NCBI RefSeq assembly: GCF_014078525.1
Contig: NZ_MU078695.1
Coordinates: forward strand, 68,851 to 100,850
DNA length: 32,000 bases
Source: Nitrosopumilus sp. b3
Lineage (GTDB): Archaea; Thermoproteota; Nitrososphaeria; Nitrososphaerales; Nitrosopumilaceae
Direction: 5' to 3'
The notes under the pieces: model-generated
Told to the model about the DNA's origin: nothing
Database searches by the model: none
The model's input: the letters and a program-made list of their open reading frames with translations, nothing else
Translations under genes and position numbers: made by a program
Shown: positions 3,101 to 27,547 of the stretch, piece by piece
Layout: each line of letters opens with the position of its first letter
Numbering within the stretch: the stretch's first letter is position 1

Positions 3101-3483
3101 AAAAAGTAGAGAAAAAACTAGTTGATAAAATGACAGACAGGTTAGACAGACAGAAAAAGTTTGATGATAAATATTCTAAATTCATAAACTTAGTAAAAAT
3201 TAATTTCAAGCTTGACAAGATTCCATCGTCGATTAACAAATTCTATCAAGACAGTTTTGAAGCCATGCTTACTTCGTTAGAAAGTGAAACAAGGGTAAAG
3301 ATTGGCATAAAAGACAAGTCAGAACTGATGGATATTTTCGAGTCAGCTTCAAAAGATTTGTTAAAAATAAAATCAGAGATTTTTGAAATAGATGACGAAG
3401 TAAATGGGATTGTTTACAAACTTTACAATTTGGATGAAAGTGAAATCATGGAAGTAGAAAAAAACTATCCTGAAGTTAATTGA
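139..3483 (+). CDS. Type IIG (Eco57I/MmeI-like) fused restriction endonuclease / N6-adenine DNA methyltransferase
   Basis: 1114-aa ORF. N-terminal PD-(D/E)xK-like 'NVEF...CFEAKG'. Methyltransferase motif I 'ILDPACGSGAFL' and motif IV 'VIGNPPY' (NPPY). Long C-terminal region consistent with a target-recognition domain. Confidence 0.85.
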   Translation: MTTANDLFNPKTIRRLCSDVKISTKQKKAASEWLKLLESGQLEKEKQNYFKFGLIVLKDLLGYPVKEDMGYEEGNVEFTFSNNEGKKIVCFEAKGTKTKDLFAPQYRDKKEHSTPVKQTWDYMGILNLDYGIATNYEQFVLIDKGKGTSKFHSFHFKDIKKDEEKLREFIAIFSKSSIIDNKFVTTLYDQSVIEEKEFTKQFYRLFHETRLMLIKEFQSNGEIQRDEAIHYAQLFLNRMVFIFFAEDTGKVPQRLIRDQILKVLDAVPVSEHSKYAYDTIFSLFESLDKGSNTPVQIFGFNGGLFQDKIPPRFYVKDLTPSGFFKKEYQNSELKKKVKLDEFAEKVIKKYQNRINPIITNLLYMSSFDFNTELNVNILGHIFEQSLTDLEELQETKISKRKIEGIFYTPEYVTDFICRNAIIRHLSKNNASNIEDLIKEYSEDIGQLEEKFKGIKILDPACGSGAFLLKAVDILLEIHKQIQTYKEFKGQYSISMKGKKDKKISEQFTLSKWNEESEAKKIIESNIFGVDVNQESTEITKLSLFLKIATGNRKLIDLSKNIRVGNSLIDDKKVDSKAFDWKKEFKEIFDKGGFDIVIGNPPYLRIQGLHEGHEHTTKFIEKNFHSATGRYDFYVLFIEKGSTLLKKDGYLGFIVPHKFTAAQFGSGIRDFLKKNKLIDTFISFGHNFVFEDVTTYTGILILKNSIHDKFFFKEIGKLSSGSIESELSLIHRNDFSQISFDSLSEKPWSLQSDSHQGITKKINEAGPPITEHFDKVLQGVITGDDEIYFLSLTKDKGKTAMFHSLKANSEVELEKELLRPVLGGEDVKRFKEIKPKQYVIYPYVVESGKQRVLEESELKKKYPLVYDYLLKFKPYLIDLRKRFKTNPKFWYGLHRSRQLSWFEQEKVMTPEISLGCNMTLDNEGHVHNTQVYSFIRNTENKIDNKYFLAILNSKISWFYLKGSGNVLRGGYLRFKSKYLEPFCIPVPDKKVEKKLVDKMTDRLDRQKKFDDKYSKFINLVKINFKLDKIPSSINKFYQDSFEAMLTSLESETRVKIGIKDKSELMDIFESASKDLLKIKSEIFEIDDEVNGIVYKLYNLDESEIMEVEKNYPEVN

Positions 3484-3553
3484 AATACATAATGTTCAGA
3501 TATTTGAGAAAATGGGAAAGAATTTGAAGAAGCAATCCTAACTGAAATATACC

Positions 3554-4441
3554 ATGTCAATGCAGTATTTTCAACTATCGCAGTCTCTAGACCTTATTTT
3601 ACAGAAAGTCAACAACATCCACGGACTCCGTTTCTTGTATAATATAGCGAAAAAGGGAGCAAACAAGGATGAACAAGATGACCTTGAATTAATAGAGTCG
3701 GTCACAAAACCTTTCTTTGATCCTTATACTGAAAGCAGACAGTTGTTTACACAGTGGATGATTGACAGTGATATCTACATATCAGCCACCAATTTTGACA
3801 AGGATAACTTTCTCAAACGATTTGTAAAACAAAGAGACAAGGTTCAAACAGAATTTGATAAAATCAAACCGAATTCCAACAAACTGGCTGAAAAAGTAGG
3901 AGAATTAAAAATTCACTTAGATGCATTGGAAAGACACGGTACACGAAAAGCCGTCATCTCAAGCATTAAGCAAAAAAGTACCCCCCAACTAGAAGATACA
4001 ATAATTCTTGAGAAAGGCAAAACAGTGGATATCCTAAAGCAAGTATCTGAAATTTTCAATGGATCCGCAAGATTTCTCAAAGTCATGGACAAGTGGGCAG
4101 GCGTAAAAATGCTAGATTATTTCGTGTCAGTTCCAGAAATTCCCATAAAAATCCTGACATCTAATCTTGAAAAGAAAAGTGAAATTGAATTTCAAGTGAT
4201 GCTAAACAGAATAAACGAAACCCGTTCCAATAAAATCGAAGTGCGTGTATGTGATCCTAAAGAATTTCATGACAGATACATCATTAATGAAAAAGACTTG
4301 TGGATGATTGGTTCTTCGTTGAAAGATGTTGGATATAAGAACTGGACTACCATCACTAGGACAAATGACAATGAAAAGAGAGGAGACATCAACAACATAT
4401 TCGATGATTTGTGGAAAAAATCATCGGTCTTTTCGTTTTAA
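3554..4441 (+). CDS. Hypothetical protein with C-terminal 'HDR'-motif domain (possibly PLD-fold, MIT_C-like)
   Basis: 295-aa ORF 70 nt downstream of the RM gene on the same strand. The C-terminal 'FHDRYIINEKDLWMIGSSLKDVG' recalls the HDR...G..L signature I remember for MIT_C/PLD-like domains; this assignment is low confidence. Confidence 0.6.
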   Translation: MSMQYFQLSQSLDLILQKVNNIHGLRFLYNIAKKGANKDEQDDLELIESVTKPFFDPYTESRQLFTQWMIDSDIYISATNFDKDNFLKRFVKQRDKVQTEFDKIKPNSNKLAEKVGELKIHLDALERHGTRKAVISSIKQKSTPQLEDTIILEKGKTVDILKQVSEIFNGSARFLKVMDKWAGVKMLDYFVSVPEIPIKILTSNLEKKSEIEFQVMLNRINETRSNKIEVRVCDPKEFHDRYIINEKDLWMIGSSLKDVGYKNWTTITRTNDNEKRGDINNIFDDLWKKSSVFSF

Positions 4442-5866: not shown

Positions 5867-8800
5867 CTAGTCTGACGAGCTTGAATACAATATGTTTGCA
5901 ATGTCTATCATGCTGTCAAATACTGACTTACAAAATATGTTGATCTCTTTTTCAGAAATAGTAATTTTATTTTTGTTCAAGATAGAACTCACAATATCGA
6001 TTAATTCTACTAGCGTTCCTTGGTCGTTGCTTTGATGTTTCATGTAGATGGTTTTTGCAAGTTCGGTATTCTCTGAAACATTGTAATGTCTTTTTAATTC
6101 TCTATCAAAGCCCCCATTATTTGAAATATTTTGAAATGCCTTTTCAGAAGAAATGATACTGATAACGGAATCTCCTACCAACGATACAATGTTTGTGTTT
6201 TTGTTAAACAGCATTGTAATGATGTCTTGTAATGCAACAGTAGGAGTCTTGTCTTCTTTTGACGATGCTGCAATCTTGATTCTATCTAATACTCCTAGTT
6301 GGGTCTTGACAAGTTCAGAAATTGTTTTAACAGGGTTTTCTCTACTTTCAGCACCACCTAACTCTAGATGTTTGAATGTTAAATCTGACGGAATTACACG
6401 AATCAAGTTGTATGTGAATTGCAAGTTTGTTTCACTAGGATTATCTTTTTCAAACTTTTTTTCTGCGTGTTTAAAGGCATTATGGAATAAAGTAGTAAAG
6501 TTCCCAAAATCTTTGATATTCATAGGGATGATGCCAATTCGAGTGGATGCTCCTGAGGTTTTATCTAGAATTAACATGTTCTTGTATCTATCATCATTAT
6601 TGATTCTTGCTAGCTCTTCGCATGAATCTTTCATATAATCATCAATGATCGGCATTACTCTTCCGTCACTACGAGTAATCATGTAAGCAGAAATCATCTG
6701 AGATGTTAATGCATGCTCAATAAAGTCTACGCTGATTTGAGTAGTCATCACATTGGCCAAAGCCATCTGAGTCTTTTCAAGTAACTTACGGTACTTGTCA
6801 TCTGTAGACATACTCTCAAGTTTTGAATCAATTTTGTCAAATCTAACTCCGGCTAGCTCTTTTGTGCTTCCAAAAAGCACACCCTTTTGCAATTCTGCAG
6901 TAAAGTCCACTAATCCGTTGAACTTGGTAATATCTCCCGAAAATACTTGCATACAAATTTTGCCAAGAGTTATTTTTTCATGTCCAAATTGTTTTTCAAA
7001 TCCATGCCTTTCCATCCATGCATAGAGAGTCTTTACAGTCAACTCATGAACTGACGCTGCTTTACATGATTCTTCTCTTGCAACATCAAAGTACTGGGTA
7101 AAGAATAATACAAGTGATGAGAAAACAAGTGCATCCATTTCATTTTCAGTCATTGTTTTCCACTGTTGATTTGCTATGATGTGCTTTGATAACAAAAGCA
7201 TTGACAAAAATCTTGATTTGTTGTTTTCATTTTGAAAAACTTCTATGATTTTCTCAACAGATACGTTTCCGGTGTTTTTTATTTCCTGTTCGTTTAGAAA
7301 GTCAACAAAGTTGTTCATGTCGGCTATGAGTCTTTTGTGAAATTCAAATGATGTCGATAGATCATCTAATAAGAAGTCATTTTTTGAATGCATCAGTTTG
7401 ACAAGAAGGATTTTCTGATTTTCTGTAATGTTGTTAAAGACGGATAAAGGATCTTCTATCAAAATCTCTGCCAATCCCAAAGTTAAGTTATTATCAATGA
7501 TTTTCTTGTACAGCGTCTTTCTCTCTGTTCTCAGTTGAATGTAATCATAGTAGAAAAGAAGAATGATTTCTTTTTTGATGCCGATTTTACTTGCAAGTCC
7601 TTCAGAAATATCTTCTTCTAAATTATCCCCACTAAACAGAATTTTATCAAAGTAATCCAGTCTGATTTTTTCTGGTATTGGATTATTTCGTGCCTCCAAT
7701 GCAAACGCAATCAGATTTTTGATTCTGACATTTGATTGAATTTGTTCAACGATCTTGGATTCCATTGAAGATAAATTGAACTCTGACTGTTTTGAGATCA
7801 CTTTACGACAGATATTTTTGAGATTTTCTGTGTCTTGATTTTCTAGATGAATTATTCTGTTGTCTACAAACATATCTGCAACAGAGGAAATCATGCTGTC
7901 TTGGGTTCTAGAGGTGCTCCAAATCCTGTTTGATGCCTGAGTTTCACCGATATAGTCAAGGTACACAAGCATAAGCAGCATCGGATTATCTATGGACAGT
8001 ACCTCTGAAACCTTGTTGATCAGTTGTTTGCTCCAGTTATCATAAATTGCAGTGGATGGAAGGAATTGCATAATTTCGTCCTTCTTTTGATTGTTTATGC
8101 TAAATTTTACATCACGAAGAATCTGCAACACTAATTTTTTCTCCTTTTCCAAGTCAGTGTAAAATGCCTCATACAGTTTCAGGAATTCTTTAAGCGAGAA
8201 TGGAGACATTCCAGAAACCATCTCTACAAACGCTCCTTTGTTTTCGTTTTTTGGTTCTATGTTGAACTTGTGCATCAGAATAAAAACTAGTTCATCGACC
8301 TTTTGATCTTGTTTCAGAAGGCTCCAAATGTCTTTCAAATTCGTTTCATTATTTGTATAATCATAATAGCATATTTTCAAAACAAGTTGAGAAACTTGCA
8401 AATGCTTGGAAAGTTTTGACGTTATGCCATCCAACCATTCAGATTCTGTCTGGCTTAAACTACTAAATTTCATCAGTCTCCTTTCAGATTCTTTGTCCAG
8501 TAAGCGGTACTCAGATAAGGCATTGCATAATGACAGAGCAAAGTATTCTTGATTGTGTTTGATGGATTTTCCCGAATAGTATTCCTTTAGTCCCGGGACA
8601 TAGTCTTGTATCACTGCAATATTTTTTGCAAGTCTTTCTTTGATGTCTTGGAAATTTCTTTTGTTTGTAGACAGGTTTGATTCTATTTTGACATCGGATT
8701 CTGGAATTTCGCCTGTCTTTTCATGGAGTCGATTTAGATTGTCATTTTCGTTGTCCCTTGTTCTTATCAAATTCGAGTTAATCGAACTGTTAGTCTTTAT

Positions 8801-9280
8801 GATCAGTATCAGCAGTCCTATGAAAGTAGCTATTCCAGGTATGAGTAATGGATCTATGGGGATTTTTTCGAGTTCAGGATTTATCTGTAGAACATCTAAA
8901 GAAATTACCGCATACAAGGCAAAGAACAATATTCCAAAAATTATCAAAATTGTGATTAATTTCCATTTGATTGATGAAGCGATTTTGTCTAATGCGTTGA
9001 TTGTATCCTTAGTAGTTTTGACTGAAGAACGTATGAAATCGGATGCAGATTGTTTGAACAAATCAAATCGGTGATTGATTTTGTTTACGGATTCATTAAT
9101 TTTGGATTCATTTTTTTCTACATCTTCAAAAAATTTCTCGCTATCTCTCTTGAACTGATCTTCGTTGTTACGGATTTTTTCTTCAGACTCGTCAAGTTCC
9201 TTTTCGCGTTTTCTTAGATCTTCTCCACGAACGTCACGTAATTCGTCTAATTTGTCGCTATTTTCTCTCTCGTTGACCAT
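5867..9280 (-). CDS. Giant hypothetical membrane-anchored protein (1137 aa): N-terminal charged coiled coil, two TM helices, large uncharacterised C-terminal region
   Basis: Uninterrupted 3.4-kb ORF. N-terminal ~95 aa are E/K/D-rich. Hydrophobic stretches 'WKLITILIIFGILFFALYAVISL' and 'LLIPGIATFIGLLILII'. No Walker or nuclease motifs seen by eye. Confidence 0.75.
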   Translation of the reverse strand: MVNERENSDKLDELRDVRGEDLRKREKELDESEEKIRNNEDQFKRDSEKFFEDVEKNESKINESVNKINHRFDLFKQSASDFIRSSVKTTKDTINALDKIASSIKWKLITILIIFGILFFALYAVISLDVLQINPELEKIPIDPLLIPGIATFIGLLILIIKTNSSINSNLIRTRDNENDNLNRLHEKTGEIPESDVKIESNLSTNKRNFQDIKERLAKNIAVIQDYVPGLKEYYSGKSIKHNQEYFALSLCNALSEYRLLDKESERRLMKFSSLSQTESEWLDGITSKLSKHLQVSQLVLKICYYDYTNNETNLKDIWSLLKQDQKVDELVFILMHKFNIEPKNENKGAFVEMVSGMSPFSLKEFLKLYEAFYTDLEKEKKLVLQILRDVKFSINNQKKDEIMQFLPSTAIYDNWSKQLINKVSEVLSIDNPMLLMLVYLDYIGETQASNRIWSTSRTQDSMISSVADMFVDNRIIHLENQDTENLKNICRKVISKQSEFNLSSMESKIVEQIQSNVRIKNLIAFALEARNNPIPEKIRLDYFDKILFSGDNLEEDISEGLASKIGIKKEIILLFYYDYIQLRTERKTLYKKIIDNNLTLGLAEILIEDPLSVFNNITENQKILLVKLMHSKNDFLLDDLSTSFEFHKRLIADMNNFVDFLNEQEIKNTGNVSVEKIIEVFQNENNKSRFLSMLLLSKHIIANQQWKTMTENEMDALVFSSLVLFFTQYFDVAREESCKAASVHELTVKTLYAWMERHGFEKQFGHEKITLGKICMQVFSGDITKFNGLVDFTAELQKGVLFGSTKELAGVRFDKIDSKLESMSTDDKYRKLLEKTQMALANVMTTQISVDFIEHALTSQMISAYMITRSDGRVMPIIDDYMKDSCEELARINNDDRYKNMLILDKTSGASTRIGIIPMNIKDFGNFTTLFHNAFKHAEKKFEKDNPSETNLQFTYNLIRVIPSDLTFKHLELGGAESRENPVKTISELVKTQLGVLDRIKIAASSKEDKTPTVALQDIITMLFNKNTNIVSLVGDSVISIISSEKAFQNISNNGGFDRELKRHYNVSENTELAKTIYMKHQSNDQGTLVELIDIVSSILNKNKITISEKEINIFCKSVFDSMIDIANILYSSSSD

Positions 9281-10961: not shown

Positions 10962-12815
10962 TCAATTCATTCTGGTCTTTATTTTTTCAAAGAAGTCAGG
11001 AACGTTTTGTATTAGGAGAAACAAAACGTTAGAATACTTGTTTTCTTGTTTAAGAGATTCTAAGAGTTTCTTATCGTCTGAAGTTACAACAACTGCATCA
11101 TATTTGGTTACATTTCGTGAAATGTTGTAATGTATGTCTGAAGTTCCAAGTTCAACTTCAACCACTGAATTAAATTTAGAAATCATAATGTCAGGACCGT
11201 CTTTGACGTTGTTTCTTATCTCCAGTCCAATGCCATCAATCTTCTTTGAAATCCAGTCGACATAGAACTGATGTCTTACACTTGGAATCTGTTTCGGTTT
11301 TTGATAGAGAATAATTGGTGCTCCTCTTCCAAGCTTTGCCTTTTGGATCTCAATCTTCTTTTTCTTCAACAGAGATTTGACCACTGAGGCATACTTCTTG
11401 TCGTCCCATCCAAGAGATTTTCTCCTTTGACGGACTGGCAAGAAAGGCTGTTTTTCCAGAAATTCCAAAAACTCATTCTCTTCGGGTCTAGGCAAATCGA
11501 TTTTTTCAGGCACAAAATTCTCTGTTTCAGGCTCATGTGCACGTATTGGAAAGTCGTCAGAGATTATCAGAAATGGTTCGTGCCCGATTGTGCTTACTAT
11601 GGCGTTCTTGTTTGGAAGTCTTACGAATTTGTCTGAAAGATATTCTGCCTCTATTGGGTCAACAAACCCGACAGACTCTGCAATAATTTTAATGTCTTCT
11701 TGATGCTGCAGTCGGAATGAAATCTTTGTTCCGGTATTTTTGAAGATGTCTCTTTCAATATTGCTTGGCGACTGCGTGATCAGAACTATTCCACATCCTC
11801 TCTTTCGCAATCTTGTTGCAAACTCTGTTGCAGGCCACGACTCTGTGACAATCATCTTGTGAAGAATTCTTGGAACTAACAGTTGTGCTTCGTCTGCAAC
11901 AAATATGTTTGTCAGTTGTTCGGTTTGCTCTCTCTTCAACATTTTTCGCAGAAAGTAAATCGTGAATATGTTGTAAATCAGTCTTAGTTCAGAGTTGTAT
12001 GCTACTAAAGAATCAAGTTCATGAAGGTCTATGACAACATTTTTCTGATCAATAGTTGTAAAGTCAGGATTTGATTTTGTGCATAGAAAGATTTCTTTTA
12101 GCGGGCTTCTAAGAAAAGGATCTAATCTTACCAGAAGTGCAGTCTTTGTCTTTTGCAGTGCAGTTAGCTTCTGTCTGTCATATGATTTGATGTTGTGAAT
12201 TAGTTCTTCAATGCTGTTGCTTTCTTTGATTGTTTCCTGAAGGACAAAGTTCATCTGAGCTGAAAGGTCTGTGTATTCTTTTTCAATTCCTTTGAAGACA
12301 GTTTCTCGAAACAATTCTCTTATCAGTCCTGGGTCTTTCAGATCAAAAGGATTGATTCTCAGGTTTTTGCCAACTGCACAATACGTTGTTTCTTTTCTTA
12401 GATTTGGAATGATGTTTTTCCATTCTCCTTCCACATCTATGATCAAAGCCTTTGGTCCTGACTTTTCCACTTTCGATACAAGATTCATTGCAAACCTTGT
12501 CTTTCCAGAACCTGTCTGTCCGGATATCATCGTGTGCTTTGTCAGAATGTCGCTTGGAAGATTGAAGGGTAGTCCTTCAGAGGTTCTGCCCAGTTTCATG
12601 CCCCAATAGTCCAAAATAGGGCTGTTTTCGAGCCTGAATCTCACGATTTGGCACCTTGGACAGTATCTTTTTCCTCTCACAAAGTTTCCGCAAATACATT
12701 GCCAGTTCACTGCCACACCTCCCGACATATTTGACAGAGTTTGTAGAGATTCGGCTTTTGCTGTCTCATCACTACTTTTGTCTCGATGTGAAACATGCAG
12801 AATATCTGCTGGCAT
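10962..12815 (-). CDS. Zn-ribbon / HerA-FtsK-superfamily (DUF87-like) P-loop ATPase with C-terminal wHTH-like and PD-(D/E)xK-like regions
   Basis: Zn-ribbon 'CICGN...CPRCQ'; Walker A 'GQTGSGKT'; Walker B-like 'IFVADEAQ'. The C-terminus has a basic helical segment, then 'GPDIMISKFNSVVEVELG' (nuclease-like, inferred). An alternative start 'MSGGVAVNW' at 12728 would reduce overlap with the upstream ORF. Confidence 0.8.
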   Translation of the reverse strand: MPADILHVSHRDKSSDETAKAESLQTLSNMSGGVAVNWQCICGNFVRGKRYCPRCQIVRFRLENSPILDYWGMKLGRTSEGLPFNLPSDILTKHTMISGQTGSGKTRFAMNLVSKVEKSGPKALIIDVEGEWKNIIPNLRKETTYCAVGKNLRINPFDLKDPGLIRELFRETVFKGIEKEYTDLSAQMNFVLQETIKESNSIEELIHNIKSYDRQKLTALQKTKTALLVRLDPFLRSPLKEIFLCTKSNPDFTTIDQKNVVIDLHELDSLVAYNSELRLIYNIFTIYFLRKMLKREQTEQLTNIFVADEAQLLVPRILHKMIVTESWPATEFATRLRKRGCGIVLITQSPSNIERDIFKNTGTKISFRLQHQEDIKIIAESVGFVDPIEAEYLSDKFVRLPNKNAIVSTIGHEPFLIISDDFPIRAHEPETENFVPEKIDLPRPEENEFLEFLEKQPFLPVRQRRKSLGWDDKKYASVVKSLLKKKKIEIQKAKLGRGAPIILYQKPKQIPSVRHQFYVDWISKKIDGIGLEIRNNVKDGPDIMISKFNSVVEVELGTSDIHYNISRNVTKYDAVVVTSDDKKLLESLKQENKYSNVLFLLIQNVPDFFEKIKTRMN

Positions 12816-13281: not shown

Positions 13282-14583
13282 TTAGACGTCTTCTATTTTT
13301 TGTAAAAGAAGATCAAACTGTTTCTGAGAATCTTTTTTGTTTGAGGCTGTCTTCGGATTACAAATCTCTGTTAGTGCGTTCTTCAACTTCTCCATTTTTT
13401 CGGAATCGGATGCGATTCCATACAACAGTTGGTCGAGTTTCTGCTTTTTTTGATCAAGAGCAACAGAATTTTTGACGTTAAGAAAAGCACCGCATCTATA
13501 GCAGAATTTAGAGACAGGAGAGTTTTGTATGCTGCACCTGAAACATTCGATTGATGTTATCTGTTGGATGTTCTCTTCTGGTTCTTTGACTCCGTTGAGT
13601 GTCCTGACTGCCTTGTCAATATGCCTTCCATATCTCTTCATGTATGTTCTTGGCATCTTTGAGCCGAACTGCCATCCCATAACCAAACACTGTTGAGGTT
13701 CATTGAGTTTGTCCAGAATCTCGTCGGCTTTTGTGTGTCTGAAGAGATACTTGAATACCCTCTTCTTGATTCCGGCCCTTGCTGCAATCTTCTTGATTAG
13801 TCGATATGACGCGTTGTAGTCTATCTGCTTGTTACGGTTGGAACGTCCAAAGCCTACCCATAATGGAGCGTCTGTTTCGTCTGACCTAGGATGGATGTTA
13901 AGCCAGGTGGTCAACGCAGGGACAGATGTGATAATTCTTACAAAATCTTCTCCTTTCTTTCCATGAACCCATAGTTTTGCCCCTGTTGAGTCAAATTCGA
14001 TATCTCCAATGTGTAACGTCAGGACTTCTTCAGGCCTTCTTCCAGATTCAAAGAAAATCTCCAAAAGTGCCCTGTCTCGAGGATTTTGAGTGGCGTTAAG
14101 AAGTGCAATCTTTTCGTCATATGTCAGCAGGTTTTTTGGAAGTATAGGATGCTTGCTCTGCAGATTTTTCTTGTCTTTTATCCATCTAACTTCTGGAGGA
14201 TATCCGTAATCGTCCCAGTCTTTGAAGGACTTCCAGAACTTCTTTATGATGATCTTGAAATCTCTTTTTGTCCAGTCCGACCAGTCCTTTCTTTCAAGGT
14301 CGGCGACAAACTTTATCAAGTCATCTTTTGTCACGTCTTCAAATGGTTTTCCTATATCTGTAGAAACTTGTCGCAATGTGTTAAGACATTTGCAGATTCT
14401 TGATTTTGAAACACCTTCTGCAACTCTGACATAGTAGTACTTGCGGAGAGTTTCCGAATTGTACTTGTCGTCTTTTATCTTTCTAAGTTCTGAATCTATC
14501 CTCTTGTCCAGTTGGTACAATTCTTCTGCTCTGCTCATTACATCAACCTGTTTTCTGTTTAATTGTAGATTGCATGTAGACAA
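13282..14583 (-). CDS. Tyrosine recombinase / integrase with C-terminal zinc-ribbon and helical extension
   Basis: 433 aa. Catalytic-region motifs 'ESGRRPEEVLTLHIGDI' (Arg I) and 'LFRHTKA' (R-H box), with a Tyr-bearing 'RTYMKRYG'. After the catalytic domain comes 'CFRCSIQNSPVSKFCYRCG' (CxxC-x10-CxxC) plus a charged tail. Confidence 0.9.
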   Translation of the reverse strand: MSTCNLQLNRKQVDVMSRAEELYQLDKRIDSELRKIKDDKYNSETLRKYYYVRVAEGVSKSRICKCLNTLRQVSTDIGKPFEDVTKDDLIKFVADLERKDWSDWTKRDFKIIIKKFWKSFKDWDDYGYPPEVRWIKDKKNLQSKHPILPKNLLTYDEKIALLNATQNPRDRALLEIFFESGRRPEEVLTLHIGDIEFDSTGAKLWVHGKKGEDFVRIITSVPALTTWLNIHPRSDETDAPLWVGFGRSNRNKQIDYNASYRLIKKIAARAGIKKRVFKYLFRHTKADEILDKLNEPQQCLVMGWQFGSKMPRTYMKRYGRHIDKAVRTLNGVKEPEENIQQITSIECFRCSIQNSPVSKFCYRCGAFLNVKNSVALDQKKQKLDQLLYGIASDSEKMEKLKNALTEICNPKTASNKKDSQKQFDLLLQKIEDV

Positions 14584-14584
14584 T

Positions 14585-14750
14585 CTTCCGAATTAAAACG
14601 CAGAGAAAATGCACGGTGCAGCCCTTGACCCGTTACAAAAGGCTGGGGAAGTGCCTATATTATCAGGTCAGTTGCTGAACTGATTGTTTCTCTGCATTTT
14701 TAATGATTTTCGGAAAGAGGATTGGATCCGTTACACCTGCACAACGTGCA
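14585..14750. promoter_or_regulatory. Structured GC-rich divergent control region between integrase and orc1/cdc6 (imperfect 24-31 nt inverted repeat, nested hairpins, repeated palindromes)
   Basis: Left arm 14585-14608 'CTTCCGAATTAAAACGCAGAGAAA' pairs with right arm 14687-14717 'TTTCTCTGCATTTTTAATGATTTTCGGAAAG'. Inner stems are GCAC/GTGC plus CAGCC/GGCTG (14611-14654) and TCAGTT/AACTGA (14668-14683). TGCAC(N1-3)GTGCA occurs at 14610-14620 and 14738-14750, and CCGTTACA at 14630-14637 and 14728-14735. Confidence 0.45.
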
Positions 14751-14913
14751 CCCCTACAACGAATACAATTCTCATTCAGAAAATCTCATGACAAAGACTT
14801 CTTTTCTAATAAAAAATAATTTTCTATGTTCCAACAGCTATTTTGCAAAAGCTGTTTTTTCGGAAAATGGTCCCATCACAATATTTAAGCTTGATAAAAT
14901 TCGTTTAGCAAAA

Positions 14914-15894
14914 ATGAAAAAGCAGATATTATTGGACAGGAGCGTATTTGAAGATACCTTCATCCCAGAGACGTTCGTTTCAAGAGAAAATCACATTAGA
15001 GAGATCATTCGGCATCTACAGCCTGTAAAGAATGGCGATTTTTCACAGTATCTGTATATTCACGGGCCACCAGGCGGAGGAAAAACTGCAATAATCAGGT
15101 CGATTCTCAAAGAAAACTTTCCAAAACAGCATGTCTATGTGAATTGTTTCAGAGACAGAACTGCCAACAAGATAATGGAGGAAGTGTTACTTCATTCCGG
15201 AATTATGTTCAGCGGAAGAGAATCAACAAGAGATATGATCAAGAAGTTTGAGAAATCTAAGAAGAGAATGTTGATTTGCCTTGATGAGGCAGATTATATC
15301 AAAGACACAGACATACTAGGGGTTTTTGTAAGAAATCTCTGTGGACTAATACTGATTTCTAACAATCATTCTTTTTCAAAAATAGATTCCAGATTAAGAA
15401 GTAGAATATTCTTTAATGAAGTAGAGTTCAACCCATATGAACCTGCAGACATCAATCAGATTCTGACTCATCGTATTTCCTATGGTTTACGTGACGGATG
15501 TATCAATGACAATCTTCTATCGGTACTATCAAAGTTCTCCAACGGAGATGCAAGAATTGGACTGCAGACTCTAAAGATAGCAGCAAATGAGGCTGAATCC
15601 AACAACTCGGAAACCATCACCATGGATGAAATAAAGTTGTCTGCCAAGAGAACCAGAAAATACAGACTGTCACTTGTTTTAGGTGAGCTCAACGAACACC
15701 AGTTGAAAATTCTAGACATCCTCAAAGAACACAACAATCTGAGATCGGGCGAGTTGATGAGGATCTACAGGCAGAGGACACAACACGACATTAACGACAG
15801 GACATATCGCAACTACATGATGCAACTTGTCGATTTTGCACTTGTAAAAGAAGGAGGCACCACAAAGGCAAGGACCTATGAGATTTTGTTGTAA
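14914..15894 (+). CDS. cdc6: Orc1/Cdc6-family AAA+ replication initiator (short form)
   Basis: Walker A 'GPPGGGKT', Walker B 'CLDEADYI', C-terminal winged-helix-like region. The ORF is open from 14722, but 'MKKQILLDRSVFEDTFIPETFVSRENHIREI' has the canonical Orc1 N-terminal spacing, and the upstream part covers the repeat-rich control region. Confidence 0.9.
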   Translation: MKKQILLDRSVFEDTFIPETFVSRENHIREIIRHLQPVKNGDFSQYLYIHGPPGGGKTAIIRSILKENFPKQHVYVNCFRDRTANKIMEEVLLHSGIMFSGRESTRDMIKKFEKSKKRMLICLDEADYIKDTDILGVFVRNLCGLILISNNHSFSKIDSRLRSRIFFNEVEFNPYEPADINQILTHRISYGLRDGCINDNLLSVLSKFSNGDARIGLQTLKIAANEAESNNSETITMDEIKLSAKRTRKYRLSLVLGELNEHQLKILDILKEHNNLRSGELMRIYRQRTQHDINDRTYRNYMMQLVDFALVKEGGTTKARTYEILL

Positions 15895-15936: not shown

Positions 15937-16281
15937 GTGGATTTTGACGGATTTCAGTTATTGATTGAAAGAGACTACAAGGAGTTTGCAGAGTTTGAAG
16001 AAAATTCAAAGAATATGTCATTAGAAGAACTGAAAGAAAATCACAATAATTGGCGCAATAAGATGAAAGACATTACTGAAAAATACGGATTTTCAAATGA
16101 AAGTGAAAAAGATCCTGACATTTCTCTGTTCATGGTCAAACTGACATATTTTTACTATCTTGCAATGTTCTGTTGGAAGTCTTTGCGGGCATATACTGAA
16201 AGACTTGCAGAAGAGCATCAAAAATTGAAGAAATCTAAGAGAAAAACAACTGCAAAGAAAAAAGCCAAGAAAAAAGAGTAG
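15937..16281 (+). CDS. Hypothetical protein (114 aa, GTG start) with Lys-rich tail
   Basis: ORF directly downstream of cdc6. Its stop codon lies inside repeat copy R1. One hydrophobic segment and a KKxK tail. Confidence 0.5.
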   Translation: MDFDGFQLLIERDYKEFAEFEENSKNMSLEELKENHNNWRNKMKDITEKYGFSNESEKDPDISLFMVKLTYFYYLAMFCWKSLRAYTERLAEEHQKLKKSKRKTTAKKKAKKKE

Positions 16282-16302
16282 AGATATTGTAAGCGTCTCA
16301 AT
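16278..16302 (+). repeat. Cassette-boundary repeat copy R1 (GTAGAGATATTGTAAGCGTCTCAAT)
   Basis: The first 20 nt are identical to R2. Contains the TAG stop of 15937..16281. GAGAT/GTCTC can pair around the TGTAAG loop. Confidence 0.8.
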
Positions 16303-16402
16303 CGCTTCTGCCGTTATCTAAATTGTCAAAAAGGTATCCGACCCCACAGTGGTTGCGGATTCCATCCGGTCCATCCCCACTGTGGGTTCAGACCCCTTTT
16401 TG
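16303..16402 (+). repeat. Long repeat copy A: CTGCCGT...AAATTGTCAAAAAGGTATCCGACCCCAC core plus ~76-nt GC-rich imperfect hairpin
   Basis: Core 16320-16347 matches 18159-18186 with 1 mismatch in 28. Hairpin stems: CAAAAAGG (16327-16334) / CCTTTTTG (16395-16402); CCCACAGTGG (16343-16352) / CCACTGTGGG (16377-16386); nested CGGAT (16356-16360) / ATCCG (16364-16368). Confidence 0.75.
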
Positions 16403-16410
16403 AAAAATAA

Positions 16411-16435
16411 GTAGAGATATTGTAAGCGTCCTAAT
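16411..16435 (+). repeat. Cassette-boundary repeat copy R2 (GTAGAGATATTGTAAGCGTCCTAAT)
   Basis: Near-identical to R1. Preceded by GAAAAATAA, as in the other copies. Lies 40 nt upstream of the methyltransferase ATG. Confidence 0.8.
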
Positions 16436-16474
16436 TTTTTTACTAAATATAAAGAACAAACACCATTTATCAAC

Positions 16475-17038
16475 ATGGGATTTTTTGATACTGAGAAAGG
16501 GGTTAATGAATACATCAAGATGGCAGAAGGTTTTGATGGAACAGAACTGATCAAGATTTTACAAAAGTTTCTTCCTTTAAAATCTACAGTGCTAGAGCTT
16601 GGTATGGGGCCTGGGAAAGACTTGGATATTCTAAACGAATCTTACCTAGTTACGGGTTCCGATTATTCCCAGATTTTCATAGACAAATACAGAAGACAAA
16701 AACCCGATGCAGATTTGCTAAAACTTGATGCGATAACTATTCCAACAGATAGAACTTTTGACTGCATATATTCTAACAAGGTATTACATCACTTAACAAG
16801 AGAAGACTTGAAAAAATCCTTTCAGAGACAGAAAAAAGTCTTGAATCCAAATGGTATTGGATTTCATTCTTTTTGGAGAGGGGATGAAGATGAAAATTAT
16901 GACGGATTATTATTTACAAAATATCAGATTGAAGAATTAAAGAAAGTGGCAGAGAATGATTTTGAGATTTTAGCCATAGAAATTTACACAGAAATGGAAA
17001 AAGATGATTCAATATATTTAATGGTAAAAAATAAATGA
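16475..17038 (+). CDS. Class I SAM-dependent methyltransferase
   Basis: 187 aa. SAM-binding motif I 'VLELGMGPGKD', acidic loop 'GSDYS', and 'DCIYSNKVLHHL' (post-II/III region). The stop codon lies inside repeat R3. Confidence 0.8.
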   Translation: MGFFDTEKGVNEYIKMAEGFDGTELIKILQKFLPLKSTVLELGMGPGKDLDILNESYLVTGSDYSQIFIDKYRRQKPDADLLKLDAITIPTDRTFDCIYSNKVLHHLTREDLKKSFQRQKKVLNPNGIGFHSFWRGDEDENYDGLLFTKYQIEELKKVAENDFEILAIEIYTEMEKDDSIYLMVKNK

Positions 17039-17062
17039 TAGAAATACTGTAAGCGTTCCAAT
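17037..17062 (+). repeat. Cassette-boundary repeat copy R3 (GATAGAAATACTGTAAGCGTTCCAAT)
   Basis: Fills the whole 23-nt gap between convergent genes. Overlaps the TGA of the methyltransferase and abuts or overlaps the TGA (minus strand) of 17062..17481. Confidence 0.75.
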
Positions 17063-17481
17063 CATTTATTGAGATTATAAGTCAGTGCCAACAAAATACA
17101 GTGTTTTATTTTGTTTACAGGAATTTTCTCTTTTTCATTAAACACGATCGCTCTGTTTCCCTGATAGGTTAATTCTGGGTATATTTTTCTGAAAGTCTCT
17201 ACCAAGTTGGTCTGACAGTGAAAGTACATTGCAAATTCTCCTTTGAATTTATGCTTGTTTATACGAATCATAGTGCCACTTTTTGATTCAGTTGTAAGAT
17301 AACTTGGCTCGCCCCATCTTAGGGTCTCTTCTAGTTTACCAACTTCTTTTGTTTTTGATGCTACTTCAAAAATGAGTTCTCGAAGAGACAATAATTTGAT
17401 TCTTATTTTTGATGGATAACTAGCAAACTTCTCAGTTATCTCTGGATTTGAAAATGTTTTCTGTATTTTCTTCTGACTCAT
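17062..17481 (-). CDS. Small conserved protein, possibly DUF1801/YdhG-like
   Basis: 139 aa. 'LEETLRWGEPSYL...' and the overall pattern resemble YdhG-like proteins from memory; not verifiable here. Confidence 0.6.
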   Translation of the reverse strand: MSQKKIQKTFSNPEITEKFASYPSKIRIKLLSLRELIFEVASKTKEVGKLEETLRWGEPSYLTTESKSGTMIRINKHKFKGEFAMYFHCQTNLVETFRKIYPELTYQGNRAIVFNEKEKIPVNKIKHCILLALTYNLNK

Positions 17482-17545
17482 GTTCTTGAATTACAATTGG
17501 TTTTTTGAATATTAGTAATTTACCATGATGACAAAAAATAAAGTT

Positions 17546-17570
17546 GGTAGGAGTTTGTAAGTACTCCAAT
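17546..17570 (+). repeat. Cassette-boundary repeat copy R4 (GGTAGGAGTTTGTAAGTACTCCAAT)
   Basis: Preceded by ACAAAAAATAA (17531-17541), as in R3 and R5. Perfect 5-bp stem GGAGT/ACTCC around TTGTAAGT. Confidence 0.8.
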
Positions 17571-17591
17571 AGCTTTGTTTTTATATTAGAA

Positions 17592-17619
17592 TATACCATA
17601 GTATACTAGAGTATACCAT
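17592..17619 (+). promoter_or_regulatory. Candidate operator of the RelB/RelE-like operon: three (G/A)TATAC units at ~10-bp spacing
   Basis: 'aTATACCAta GTATACtaga GTATACCAtg'. TATACCAT occurs at 17592-17599 and 17612-17619. The palindrome GTATAC occurs at 17601-17606 and 17611-17616. The element overlaps the ATG (17618) and sits just downstream of TATA-like 'TTTTATATTA'. Confidence 0.4.
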
Positions 17620-17851
17620 GGAACAAAGCACAATCAAACTTTCTAAAAAGATAAAAAACGATCTCAAAAAACAGATGACCCATCCAGGCGAAACCTATGA
17701 AATGGTAATTGCAAGACTGCTAAAAAACTCACAGGAAGACGATGTGTTAAGCCCTGCAATCATCAAAAATATTGAAGAAGGAGTGGCAGACATCAAGGCA
17801 GGACGTGTGTATACATCTGAACAAGTCAAAAAGAGACTAGGCCTAAAATGA
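17618..17851 (+). CDS. Putative antitoxin (RHH/RelB-like) of the RelE/ParE-family toxin
   Basis: 77 aa. N-terminal 'TIKLSKKIKNDLKK' resembles the strand-helix of ribbon-helix-helix proteins. The stop is 1 nt from the toxin start. Confidence 0.7.
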   Translation: MEQSTIKLSKKIKNDLKKQMTHPGETYEMVIARLLKNSQEDDVLSPAIIKNIEEGVADIKAGRVYTSEQVKKRLGLK

Positions 17852-17852
17852 T

Positions 17853-18107
17853 ATGACATGGCAAGTCATATGGTCTGAAAAGTCTGTAAAGCAGCTAGAA
17901 AAACTAGACAAGAAAAATGCACAAAGGGTTTATGATGCAGTGTTAGATTGTACACAAGATCCGTTCAAAAGTGTGGCAAGACTTTCAAATTCGCCATTTT
18001 ACAGACTTAGAGTAGGAAATTACAGAGTTATTTTGGATCTGCAGCAAAGTAAAATGATTATCTTTGTTATCGAAACAGATCACAGGGGAAGAATTTACAA
18101 AAAATAA
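17853..18107 (+). CDS. relE: RelE/ParE-family type II toxin
   Basis: 84 aa. 'W.V.WSEKSVKQLEKLDKK...', 'FYRLRVGNYRVILDL' and 'IIFVIETDHRGRIY' are the canonical RelE/ParE blocks. The stop lies at the edge of repeat R5. Confidence 0.85.
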   Translation: MTWQVIWSEKSVKQLEKLDKKNAQRVYDAVLDCTQDPFKSVARLSNSPFYRLRVGNYRVILDLQQSKMIIFVIETDHRGRIYKK

Positions 18108-18108
18108 T

Positions 18109-18131
18109 GGTAGGAGTTTGTATACTCCAAT
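18109..18131 (+). repeat. Cassette-boundary repeat copy R5 (GGTAGGAGTTTGTATACTCCAAT)
   Basis: Same as R4 except for a 2-nt deletion in the loop. Preceded by ACAAAAAATAA, which encodes the toxin C-terminus and stop. Confidence 0.8.
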
Positions 18132-18213
18132 AACTTTCTGCCGTCACTTCATTTTGTAAAATTGCCAAAAAGGTATCCGACCCCACTGTGGGCGCGGAGA
18201 CCATCAGGTCCAC
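18132..18213 (+). repeat. Long repeat copy B (CTGCCGT...AAATTGCCAAAAAGGTATCCGACCCCAC...), lacking the right hairpin arm of copy A
   Basis: Shares CTGCCGT and the 28-nt core with copy A. The following ~30 nt (CTGTGGGCGCGGAGACCATCAGGTCCAC) align at roughly 70% to copy A's hairpin left arm and loop. No equivalent of the right arm was found. Confidence 0.7.
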
Positions 18214-18247: not shown

Positions 18248-19225
18248 TTACTTGACTTGAATTATTCCTTTTTCCACTAGATATTGAATGGAATTAACTA
18301 ATTCAGTATCAGATGTAAGATCATTTGACCACCATCCAATATTTTGACGAACCCAATCTGGAACAGTATTCTCAGAATTACCAGAATTTCCAGACAAAAT
18401 TGGAATCTCAATTATTTCCTCAGTAATCAAATATTCAATGCCATCAATAAATTCAAAATCTTCAATCAATCCATCAGACCACCATGATGCGACATTTTTG
18501 AAATATGACGGAATCTGAATTTTATTTAATTGAAAATCCACTTTGCCAAAATTTTCTTCATCATAAGATGCAATTATACTAAAACTCCCAGATTCCCAAT
18601 TATCTGCAATTCTGATGTGAGCAGTAAAATCGCCGTTAGATTTTCCAGTGATTTTTACATCAGATGTTAAACCACTAGGATGAAGAATCTTTAATGTGAT
18701 CAGTTCCCCTCTTTGATAATTTTTGATATTACCATTTACCTCAACTGTGGATTTCTCATTACCTGTAACGGTAATTTCCTCTTCATCAATCTCCAAACTT
18801 CCAATGCTGGACATGACTGGTATATTTTGCACAGAAACAGAAGTGATAGAAAAGGAGGCAGAACCAATTTCATTATTGAGATAAGTTGCTAATAGTGGAT
18901 AATTTCCTACATCCCAATTAGAATCAAGCAGTATAGGAGTAGAAAAATTGCCTTCCTTATCTGCTTGAGTTTTTAGAATTATTGAAGTGTTATCAGGTTT
19001 TTTGATTTCAATGAGTATCACCTGACCTGAATTATAATCAACTACATTTCCAGAGATATTAAGAATTGTGGGAGCAGTTTCAGAGATAGAGATGGAATCT
19101 TGGTCAATATTTAGCGAACCAAACTCAGTTGAACTACCGGAAATGGCAGAAACTGATACAAAATTTGAACTGACAATAATCATTACTAGAATTGATGTAA
19201 TAACTATGCCATAATTCAAGATCAT
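18248..19225 (-). CDS. Secreted/cell-surface protein with duplicated beta-rich domains and duplicated C-terminal W-rich motif
   Basis: 325 aa with an N-terminal hydrophobic signal/anchor. Two internal repeats ('NISGNVVDYNSGQVILIEIKKP...NWDVGNY' and 'VNGNIKNYQRGELITLKILHP...NWESGSF'). Two C-terminal 'WWS(D/N).L..D.E....I.YL' motifs. Confidence 0.75.
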   Translation of the reverse strand: MILNYGIVITSILVMIIVSSNFVSVSAISGSSTEFGSLNIDQDSISISETAPTILNISGNVVDYNSGQVILIEIKKPDNTSIILKTQADKEGNFSTPILLDSNWDVGNYPLLATYLNNEIGSASFSITSVSVQNIPVMSSIGSLEIDEEEITVTGNEKSTVEVNGNIKNYQRGELITLKILHPSGLTSDVKITGKSNGDFTAHIRIADNWESGSFSIIASYDEENFGKVDFQLNKIQIPSYFKNVASWWSDGLIEDFEFIDGIEYLITEEIIEIPILSGNSGNSENTVPDWVRQNIGWWSNDLTSDTELVNSIQYLVEKGIIQVK

Positions 19226-27472: not shown

Positions 27473-27547
27473 GCCAATGTAGCTCAGCCTGGTTAGAGCA
27501 GCTGATTTGTAATCAGCAGGTCGTGGGTTCGGATCCCGTCATTGGCT
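27473..27547 (+). tRNA. tRNA-Thr (anticodon UGU), CCA not encoded
   Basis: Hand-folded cloverleaf. Acceptor GCCAATG/CATTGGC, D stem GCTC/GAGC, anticodon stem GCTGA/TCAGC with loop TT-TGT-AA, T arm GTGGG-TTCGGAT-CCCGT, discriminator T. Followed by a T-run. Confidence 0.9.

Follow-up and report, generated by a model that had tools for sequence, protein, structure and literature searches.

The integrated elements of thaumarchaea lie mainly in the 3' ends of tRNA genes, and the closest described counterpart of the locus considered here is NitMar-E3 of Nitrosopumilus maritimus, a 41-kb element whose attachment (att) sequence, TCCCATCCGGTCCAC, lies in tRNA-Val(CAC) (Krupovic et al. 2019, PMC6563490). 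That survey places the NitMar-E3 integrase 48 nt from the att end and describes thaumarchaeal att sites only as short direct repeats with a median length of 17 bp, leaving the arms undescribed (PMC6563490). Tyrosine-recombinase elements, both thaumarchaeal and from other archaea, are also described as forming arrays by re-using one site. In this study, we analysed a 32,000-nt stretch of the Nitrosopumilus sp. b3 genome (hereafter the window; GC content ~34%), in which a short repeat, R, occurs five times (R1-R5) at gene boundaries near a tyrosine integrase. The initial annotation of this DNA had regarded the R copies as the boundary sites of an undescribed recombination or cassette system.

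The architecture that we find is that of tandem integration at a tRNA gene, which has already been described. On balance, we consider it probable that integrated elements lie in tandem in the 3' end of tRNA-Val(CAC), that this stretch covers the end of their array farthest from the tRNA gene, and that R is an arm motif of their att sites. A large element, E2, which carries a HerA-like ATPase, a zinc-ribbon integrase and a Cdc6/Orc1 protein, would end at 16373, and a unit without an integrase, E1, would span 16374-18212. What is new is a first outline of the arms of the element-side att site (attP) for one thaumarchaeal element family, a core-bounded unit of <2 kb and an arm motif at each gene boundary.

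Several traits of thaumarchaeal cryptic integrated elements are present, namely a tyrosine recombinase, att repeats that include part of a tRNA and an empty site in a close relative. Like NitMar-E3 and its thaumarchaeal counterparts, the locus has a tyrosine integrase, is integrated in a tRNA 3' end and carries a cargo of restriction-modification, toxin-antitoxin and methyltransferase genes; with NitMar-E3 it further shares the genus, the target gene and the att sequence. It differs from NitMar-E3 in comprising at least two stacked units instead of one element and in having its integrase 1.7 kb from the junction instead of 48 nt from the end. Neither Cdc6 nor HerA appears among Nmar_1155-1169, the only rows of the Nmar_1134-1169 gene table that are covered, and here the arm motif is repeated five times.

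Arrays of integrative conjugative or mobilizable elements (ICEs or IMEs) with cis-mobilizable elements (CIMEs) offer a second comparison. In the CIME model, which was drawn from Firmicutes, elements decay to integrase-less units bounded by att sites and a new element is then accreted (Pavlovic 2004; Bellanger 2011; PMC5704250). As in such arrays, an integrase-less att-bounded unit lies here in tandem with an integrase-bearing element at a tRNA 3' end, with an internal hybrid att site: there are two direct cores 1.84 kb apart with homologous arms on the P side, and the left core also carries a P' arm, as a hybrid site would. The described CIME arrays, however, are bacterial and conjugative, and CIMEs are usually several kilobases long and are not split by an arm motif at gene boundaries.

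Two direct att cores and a putative hybrid att site

Integration at a tRNA gene is indicated by a second repeat, distinct from R. It is 54 nt long, with 87% identity between the copies at 16320-16373 and 18159-18212 (blastn within the window, E 1e-9), and these lie 3' of R1 and R5 at similar spacing. Both copies terminate in the 12-mer CCATC(C/A)GGTCCA, the 3' end of tRNA-Val(CAC), which occurs in the window only at 16362 and 18201 (0.04 occurrences expected), and the stretches of about 110 nt that precede the two cores are homologous to each other. Because the 12-mer equals both the tRNA-Val(CAC) 3' end and the published att of NitMar-E3, we take it to be the att core. Core copy 1, CCATCCGGTCCA (16362..16373, on the + strand like all of the att features described here), is located at the E2/E1 junction; it is the exact 3' end of the N. 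adriaticus tRNA-Val and matches the NitMar-E3 att. Core copy 2, CCATCAGGTCCA (18201..18212), has one mismatch and is located at the right junction with the chromosome.

On the P side of core copy 1, positions 16303..16361 hold a spacer, the palindrome CCCCACAGTGG and a diverged copy of the tRNA T arm. This segment is 87% identical to 18159-18200, and 20 of 25 nt match the T arm plus acceptor of the N. adriaticus tRNA-Val. The second copy of the spacer, palindrome and diverged T arm occupies 18138..18200. To the right of core copy 1, 38 nt (16374..16411) constitute the P' arm of E1, which contains a second palindrome, CCCCACTGTGGG, can be read as CCCCACTGTGGG...TTTTTGAAAAATA and forms the 3' arm of a hairpin with 16318-16352. 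The resulting imperfect palindrome of 92 nt has 35-nt arms that are 80% complementary (-48.8 kcal/mol, z -5.1), and it arises because the short palindrome CCCCAC(A/T)GTGG flanks the core on both sides. The sequence past core copy 1 forms the 3' arm of this palindrome, whereas that past core copy 2 does not. The interval between R1 and R2 had been annotated as a non-coding hairpin element, a description that missed both its CCATCCGGTCCA sequence, the tRNA-Val(CAC) 3' end, and its identity with an att core; judged from its layout, the 'hairpin element' is an apparent hybrid att site.

Two further features of the att regions were noted. Core copy 1 is overlapped by a local direct repeat, TCCATCC-GG-TCCATCC, at 16362-16380, which is absent from copy 2. 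The P-arm spacer CATTTTGTAAAATTGCC (within 18134-18172) resembles the 17 nt immediately 5' of the N. adriaticus tRNA-Val, CTTTTTGTAGAATCTTC (L003 11109-11125); in comparisons of the P-arm spacer with these 17 nt, the similarity was not significant against shuffled sequences (p 0.06 and 0.47). A derivation of R itself from the tRNA gene or its upstream flank was also considered and rejected, the local alignments being no better than those of shuffles (p 0.2-0.95). Nor does R or the hairpin belong to a known RNA family according to Rfam, which gave no match above threshold: the hairpin scored 23.7 bits against a microRNA-precursor model with a cutoff of 90 bits, and snoRNA matches in the region were likewise sub-threshold.

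The empty site and the chromosomal junction

In N. adriaticus (loci L003 and L004) and in a metagenome contig (L008), an intact tRNA-Val(CAC) stands directly beside a 325-aa gene, which represents the empty site, and the tRNA occupies the spot where the window carries R5, the arm and the core. The corresponding gene of the window (18248..19225, - strand), 91% identical to that of N. adriaticus, is the first conserved chromosomal gene, and the gene order to its right is the same in the window, N. adriaticus and L008. Collinearity with N. adriaticus and L008 extends from the T arm/3' end of the tRNA (GTGG...CCATCCGGTCCA) through the downstream flank, and the 5' two-thirds of tRNA-Val are absent from the 32-kb window, as is expected at the right-hand junction of an integration into a tRNA 3' end. 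From this comparison, 18212 is the apparent right-hand junction of integrated DNA with the chromosome. ARAGORN found no tRNA in the repeat region, and the only Rfam match in the window at gathering thresholds was a tRNA-Thr at 27473.

The tRNA-Val(CAC) of the empty sites (L003 11012-11108, L008 1490-1586) has a 20-nt insertion in its variable region, which possibly forms a GGGA-GUAA-UCCC stem-loop, and is still accepted as a tRNA by both ARAGORN and Rfam. In another Nitrosopumilus lineage (L005-L007), the orthologue of the 325-aa gene is followed not by tRNA-Val but by tiny open reading frames (ORFs; 44-74 aa) and a DUF2196 gene; this may be a further variable region at the same chromosomal position.

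The repeat R and its five copies

Direct reading of the sequence confirmed five motif copies at the annotated positions, all on the + strand. R1 (16269-16302) is the outer block of the P arm of E2 and is the positional homologue of R5 (18099-18137), which is the outer block of the P arm of E1. R2 (16402-16435) directly follows the P' arm and precedes the promoter region of the methyltransferase gene; R3 (17029-17062) takes up all of the 23 nt that separate the convergent genes for the methyltransferase and DUF1801; and R4 (17536-17576) lies in the divergent promoter region between the DUF1801 and antitoxin genes. The observation that gene ends fall inside or abut the repeats also holds. The TAG stop codon of the 114-aa ORF (16279-16281) is the TAG of GTAG within R1, the methyltransferase TGA (17036-17038) and the ParE TAA (18105-18107) are inside the A-rich leaders of R3 and R5, respectively, and the stop codon of the minus-strand DUF1801 gene (17062-17064) directly adjoins R3.

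The five copies had been described as one motif, with R3 as an intermediate form. The shared layout and position of the copies uphold this description, but the sequence statistics do not. R1 and R2 are identical at 21 of 21 central nt and at 30 of 34 nt overall (blastn within the window, E 1e-6), and R4 and R5 are 91% identical over 32 nt with a 2-nt indel (E 1e-4). A profile of R1 and R2 recovered R3 (E 1e-3), which thus groups with these two copies and is not intermediate. The profile of R1-R3 did not recover R4 (E 7.9) or R5 (absent), and the profile of R4 and R5 did not recover R1-R3. Profile comparison hence separates the repeats into two subfamilies, A (R1, R2 and R3) and B (R4 and R5). 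A profile of all five copies found no further match in the 32-kb window.

As duplex DNA, R is an imperfect 7-bp inverted repeat, TAGGAGN / NCTCCAA, after an A-rich, stop-rich leader. R1-R3 have 11 nt between the arms, R4 has 8 and R5 has 6, and the arms of R2 and R3 contain mismatches (one or two over ~7 bp in R generally). Stems of 4-5 bp can be drawn, as had been proposed, yet the predicted DNA folds have only marginal stability (energies of 0 to -2.9 kcal/mol with z of -0.5 to -2), R2 having none; a stable hairpin in R was rejected on these energies and z-scores.

A homologous module in a distant relative

Comparative material came from 80 metagenome loci, and motif searches covered ~805 kb of loci. 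The integrase and the methyltransferase each have a 100% identical counterpart among the proteins of Nitrosopumilus sp. b3; outside b3, the relatives of the integrase are at most 59% identical. One of the 80 loci, the metagenomic element L010, was informative: its HerA, integrase and Cdc6 proteins are 63, 55 and 49% identical to those of E2, respectively. The Cdc6 operon of L010 is followed, ~90 nt past its final ORF, by a module with the sequence AAAAAAATTTGGGTAGGAGATTAGTCGCCTCTCCAATAGGCTTTCTGCGTTAT..., which continues with two short palindromes around ...TTCCTTCGGGCCCA, the P' side ending in TTTTTTGAAAAATA. The order of the parts (R, spacer, palindrome, core, palindrome) is that of R1 through the hairpin, and the module was the top match of a single-sequence search with the R1-hairpin region over the 805 kb (E 0.005). 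The whole module is significant; its R alone, top-ranked for queries with R4 and R5, is not (E 7-13, and E 2.6-4.4 in a further comparison).

The R of L010 has the arms GGAGA/TCTCC, to be compared with GGAGT/ACTCC in R4 and R5 and GAGA/TCTC in R1, around an unrelated loop of 9 nt; after these B-type arms follows the same CTTTCTGC(C)GT spacer. It is the single R of that element and the positional homologue of R1 and R5. Taken together, these comparisons make R an apparent conserved P-arm feature of the element family, with its fivefold repetition peculiar to the window. Four independent assemblies of this related element (L010, L091, L092 and L093) stop at two shared positions relative to the start of the R-att module, ~230 nt (L092 and L093) and ~330 nt (L010 and L091), which suggests a repeat or a strain-variable junction there. 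Two loci from a different organism whose integrase is 55% identical (L095/L096) contain neither R nor the module, and no closer relatives of the element were found in IMG/VR.

The R model had no match in ~14 kb of host DNA in the window, in ~100 kb of chromosomal DNA from other Nitrosopumilus, in the remaining 16 kb of E2 or elsewhere in ~800 kb of related loci. A motif common at ordinary gene ends would have pointed to a generic signal; the motif is not common at such ends, which favours a locus-specific role. A generic gene-end signal or terminator likewise found no support, as no R was found elsewhere in the window or in the 805 kb and a terminator scan was negative. Exact 19-25-mers of the hairpin and R were absent from IMG/VR and the GTDB species representatives, apart from two chance bacterial hits; a search of IMG/VR and of 596 Gb of genomes representing species with the hairpin 19-mer gave no true match; and the complete unit had no blastn match in collections of phages and plasmids. 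A miniature inverted-repeat transposable element or other multicopy repeat was rejected, since these searches gave no further copies, the tRNA 3' end forms the exact limit of the second copy and the flanking repeat is 21-34 nt.

Genes of E2 and E1

The DNA to the left of 18212 is regarded as mobile because of its gene content (a restriction-modification enzyme, a PLD nuclease, HerA, the integrase and Cdc6) and a shift in GC, from 0.30-0.34 in the flank to 0.37-0.40 at 9-16 kb. E2 encodes a HerA/VirB4-like ATPase (10962..12815, - strand; Pfam DUF87/HerA and TrwB_AAD_bind), whose 63% identical homologue in L010 also lies beside an integrase gene. The recombinase that had been annotated at 13282..14583 (- strand) is a Xer-like tyrosine integrase, as Pfam confirms (PF00589 at 4.8e-11). 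Its best family-profile match is XerA 4A8E (1.5e-15), with a further XerA match at 1.6e-11, and its match to IntI4 is weak (2e-5) and confined to a short stretch. The protein ends in a four-cysteine zinc ribbon, whose Cys347/350/361/364 (CxxC...CxxC) are invariant in 16 homologues, and many of its relatives are encoded directly beside tRNA genes. One source annotates a member of this integrase family as 'integrase/ribosomal protein L40E'. A Cdc6/Orc1-like replication initiator follows (14722..15894, + strand; Pfam Cdc6_lid and AAA; the 49% identical homologue in L010 has the same neighbourhood), and the last ORF of E2 encodes 114 aa without a family (15937..16281, + strand).

Large ORFs without a family also occur to the left of 18212. 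One of these, of 1137 aa (5867-9280, - strand), has no Pfam family and a 24% identical full-length homologue in the integrase locus L068 (2525-5830). At 139-4441, an MmeI/Eco57I-like type IIG restriction-modification enzyme (1114 aa) is followed by a weak match to a PLD-family nuclease, a region that looks like defence cargo of the large element.

The genes of E1 are limited to a methyltransferase, a DUF1801 gene, an antitoxin and ParE, with none for integration or transfer. Pfam agrees with the identities proposed initially: 16475..17038 (+ strand) encodes a class I S-adenosylmethionine-dependent methyltransferase, 17062..17481 (- strand, the opposite orientation) a DUF1801-domain protein (PF08818 at 2.8e-10), and 17618..18107 (+ strand) an antitoxin of 77 aa with a toxin of 84 aa that is of the ParE/RelE type (PF05016 at 4.9e-9). 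The methyltransferase gene and the toxin-antitoxin pair each have their own AT-rich upstream region with TATA-like boxes. Homologues of the methyltransferase with 75-78% identity are ordinary chromosomal genes in other Nitrosopumilus, in two different neighbourhoods, and no R was found in their flanks, on which grounds a mobile 'cassette' consisting of the methyltransferase with R was rejected. Just upstream of and overlapping the antitoxin start codon, at 17582-17619, lies an operator-like direct repeat containing TATAnTAGAnTATACCAT twice (TATATTAGAATATACCAT / TATACTAGAGTATACCAT), each copy being internally palindromic; this is probably the operator of the toxin-antitoxin pair.

Discussion

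In the mechanism that we propose, strand exchange would take place within the 12-nt core CCATC(C/A)GGTCCA, and attP would consist, in order, of R, a spacer of 17-27 nt, a short palindrome, the diverged T-arm copy, the core and a second palindrome. R1 and R5 would then be the outer conserved block of the element-side arm, and R most likely serves as a protein-binding site that aids the assembly or direction of recombination and not as a crossover site. The C-terminal zinc ribbon of the integrase is a candidate reader of R. The initial annotation had linked the repeats to site-specific recombination; its association of mobile DNA and repeats with the nearby tyrosine recombinase stands, and the recombination site to which comparative evidence points is the tRNA core and not R. 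With less certainty, we infer that R2, R3 and R4 are remnants of arms from previous accretion events: related elements of small size may have been stacked at the same att, and the cores between them may have been removed by short-repeat recombination or by deletion between R copies lying close together. Exactly one solo R would be left, for example, if R1 recombined with R2. We favour such a history because the tRNA core is the sole crossover site with comparative support, because strand exchange between copies cannot be reconciled with R spacers that range in length between 6 and 11 nt, and because L010 has no array.

Several observations weigh against this reading of the locus. The intact tRNA-Val and the left att fall outside the window, and neither Pfam nor profile comparison reveals a recognizable lambda-type arm-binding domain in the integrase. 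Subfamilies A and B are linked by layout and position and not by sequence statistics. In L010, R alone is not significant (it is top-ranked for the R4 and R5 queries, with E 2.6-13), and the one copy present there leaves the P' side without any, so that a core flanked by R on either side does not characterize the family. The history of accretion plus deletion needs several events, and it does not explain the tight placement of R at gene ends or the presence of one gene or operon per unit.

A rival view takes R as the recombination site itself. Single-gene circles with one R each would have been inserted at a resident R beside the tRNA att, by the element integrase, by host XerA or by short-homology recombination, to yield an integron-like array. 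Every R-to-R unit indeed holds one gene or operon and is tightly bounded; the orientation of the copies is uniform; and the copies flanking a unit (R2 and R3, of subfamily A, for the methyltransferase; R4 and R5, of subfamily B, for the toxin-antitoxin pair) are of one subfamily and most alike, as would be expected of hybrid sites made by insertion. The imperfect 7-bp arms about a short spacer look like the core site of a simple recombinase system, the integrase is of the Xer type, with its weak resemblance to IntI4, and a methyltransferase that is chromosomal elsewhere would have been captured. However, the unequal overlaps that the spacers of R1-R5 and L010 would impose cannot exchange strands, the arms are short and, in R2 and R3, mismatched, the R1-R2 unit is an att region without a gene, and circles of 500-630 bp are physically awkward. 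The single R of L010 likewise argues against an array, as does the lack of a second R-bounded locus in the GTDB representatives, IMG/VR, the phage and plasmid collections and the fetched loci. We regard R as the recombination site as unlikely, and we hold it slightly less likely still that the R-bounded units are true cassettes, small circles being shuffled with R as a secondary site for the Xer-like zinc-ribbon integrase or host XerA. The comparison with integrons divides similarly. Small units near a tyrosine recombinase, a toxin-antitoxin unit, a repeated boundary element and the ~90-nt imperfect palindrome at R1-hairpin-R2 are all reminiscent of them. In contrast to integrons, a hairpin is present at 1.5 of the five boundaries (one palindrome being complete and another half present), the units bring promoter-like regions of their own, DUF1801 is inverted, the integrase is closest to XerA and the demonstrated site is the tRNA att; the earlier remark that the sites lack an attC core is also correct, as reading of R1-R5 and the hairpin found no RYYYAAC/GTTRRRY. 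Acinetobacter pdif modules and Xer-at-dif elements are presumably also like the R units in being small single-gene or toxin-antitoxin modules with short inverted-repeat Xer sites. pdif sites alternate in orientation, whereas all R copies point one way, and dif-type sites have two 11-bp inverted arms and a fixed 6-bp spacer, unlike the ~7-bp arms of R with one or two mismatches and its spacers of 6-11 nt. R bears some resemblance to the Pyrococcus dif, but as a dif-like Xer site it was rejected on this misfit of arms and spacers; no thaumarchaeal dif was found in the papers covered.

R might instead be a regulatory module copied along with genes and have no part in recombination, either as a terminator or insulator (a weak hairpin with TTATTTTTT on the minus strand) or as an operator. 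Four of the five copies are at gene 3' ends, R3 forms the entire spacer of two convergent genes, the A-rich leader supplies stop codons, and R1 and R5 would block transcription into the element from the host gene at 18248-19225. Every copy is also followed by a run of T5-T7 on the minus strand, and T runs are the archaeal termination signal. Yet only R3 and R5 follow a minus-strand gene. The three + strand genes would need their strong T run on the opposite strand, and neither strand offers R2 or R4 a gene that they could terminate. The marginal stems, the terminator scan, which calls none, and the absence of the motif from the host DNA, the chromosomal DNA of other Nitrosopumilus and the rest of E2 speak further against it, and as a complete account of R it seems improbable to us. 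A regulatory role fits R3 and R5, not R2 and R4, and could possibly coexist with that of an arm site. Least credible is the view that no five-member family exists, which we consider very unlikely: R1/R2 and R4/R5 would be two unrelated recent duplications and R3 a chance look-alike, sharing AT-rich leaders and a TGTA/CAAT pattern. The failure of models across the subfamilies (E 7.9 and 17) is what this view predicts, and at ~34% GC, A-rich leaders and short shared words come cheaply. It is opposed by the recovery of R3 with the R1+R2 model, by the identical position of R1 and R5 relative to the homologous 54-nt repeat and att core, by the occurrence of five copies at gene boundaries on one strand within 1.9 kb, and by the L010 R, in which B-type arms precede the common spacer.

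Weighing these alternatives, we return to the tandem array at tRNA-Val(CAC), with R as an arm motif, as the account that we hold to be slightly more likely than not. The locus then provides a first attP sketch for the family of elements with HerA, a zinc-ribbon integrase and Cdc6: an outer inverted repeat, a spacer and two palindromes around a core at the tRNA 3' end. It also indicates that tRNA-Val(CAC) has served more than once as an integration hot spot in Nitrosopumilus, and that a complete element can have a lasting att-bounded neighbour of <2 kb that carries a methyltransferase and a toxin-antitoxin pair. Should the R copies not be recombination sites, the stretch is an ordinary, well-resolved case of island growth by accretion and decay. 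If they are, it would contain a gene-capture mechanism not yet described in archaea, and true cassettes between them would mean that an integrative element carries, in archaea, a gene-capture system comparable to that of integrons or pdif modules.

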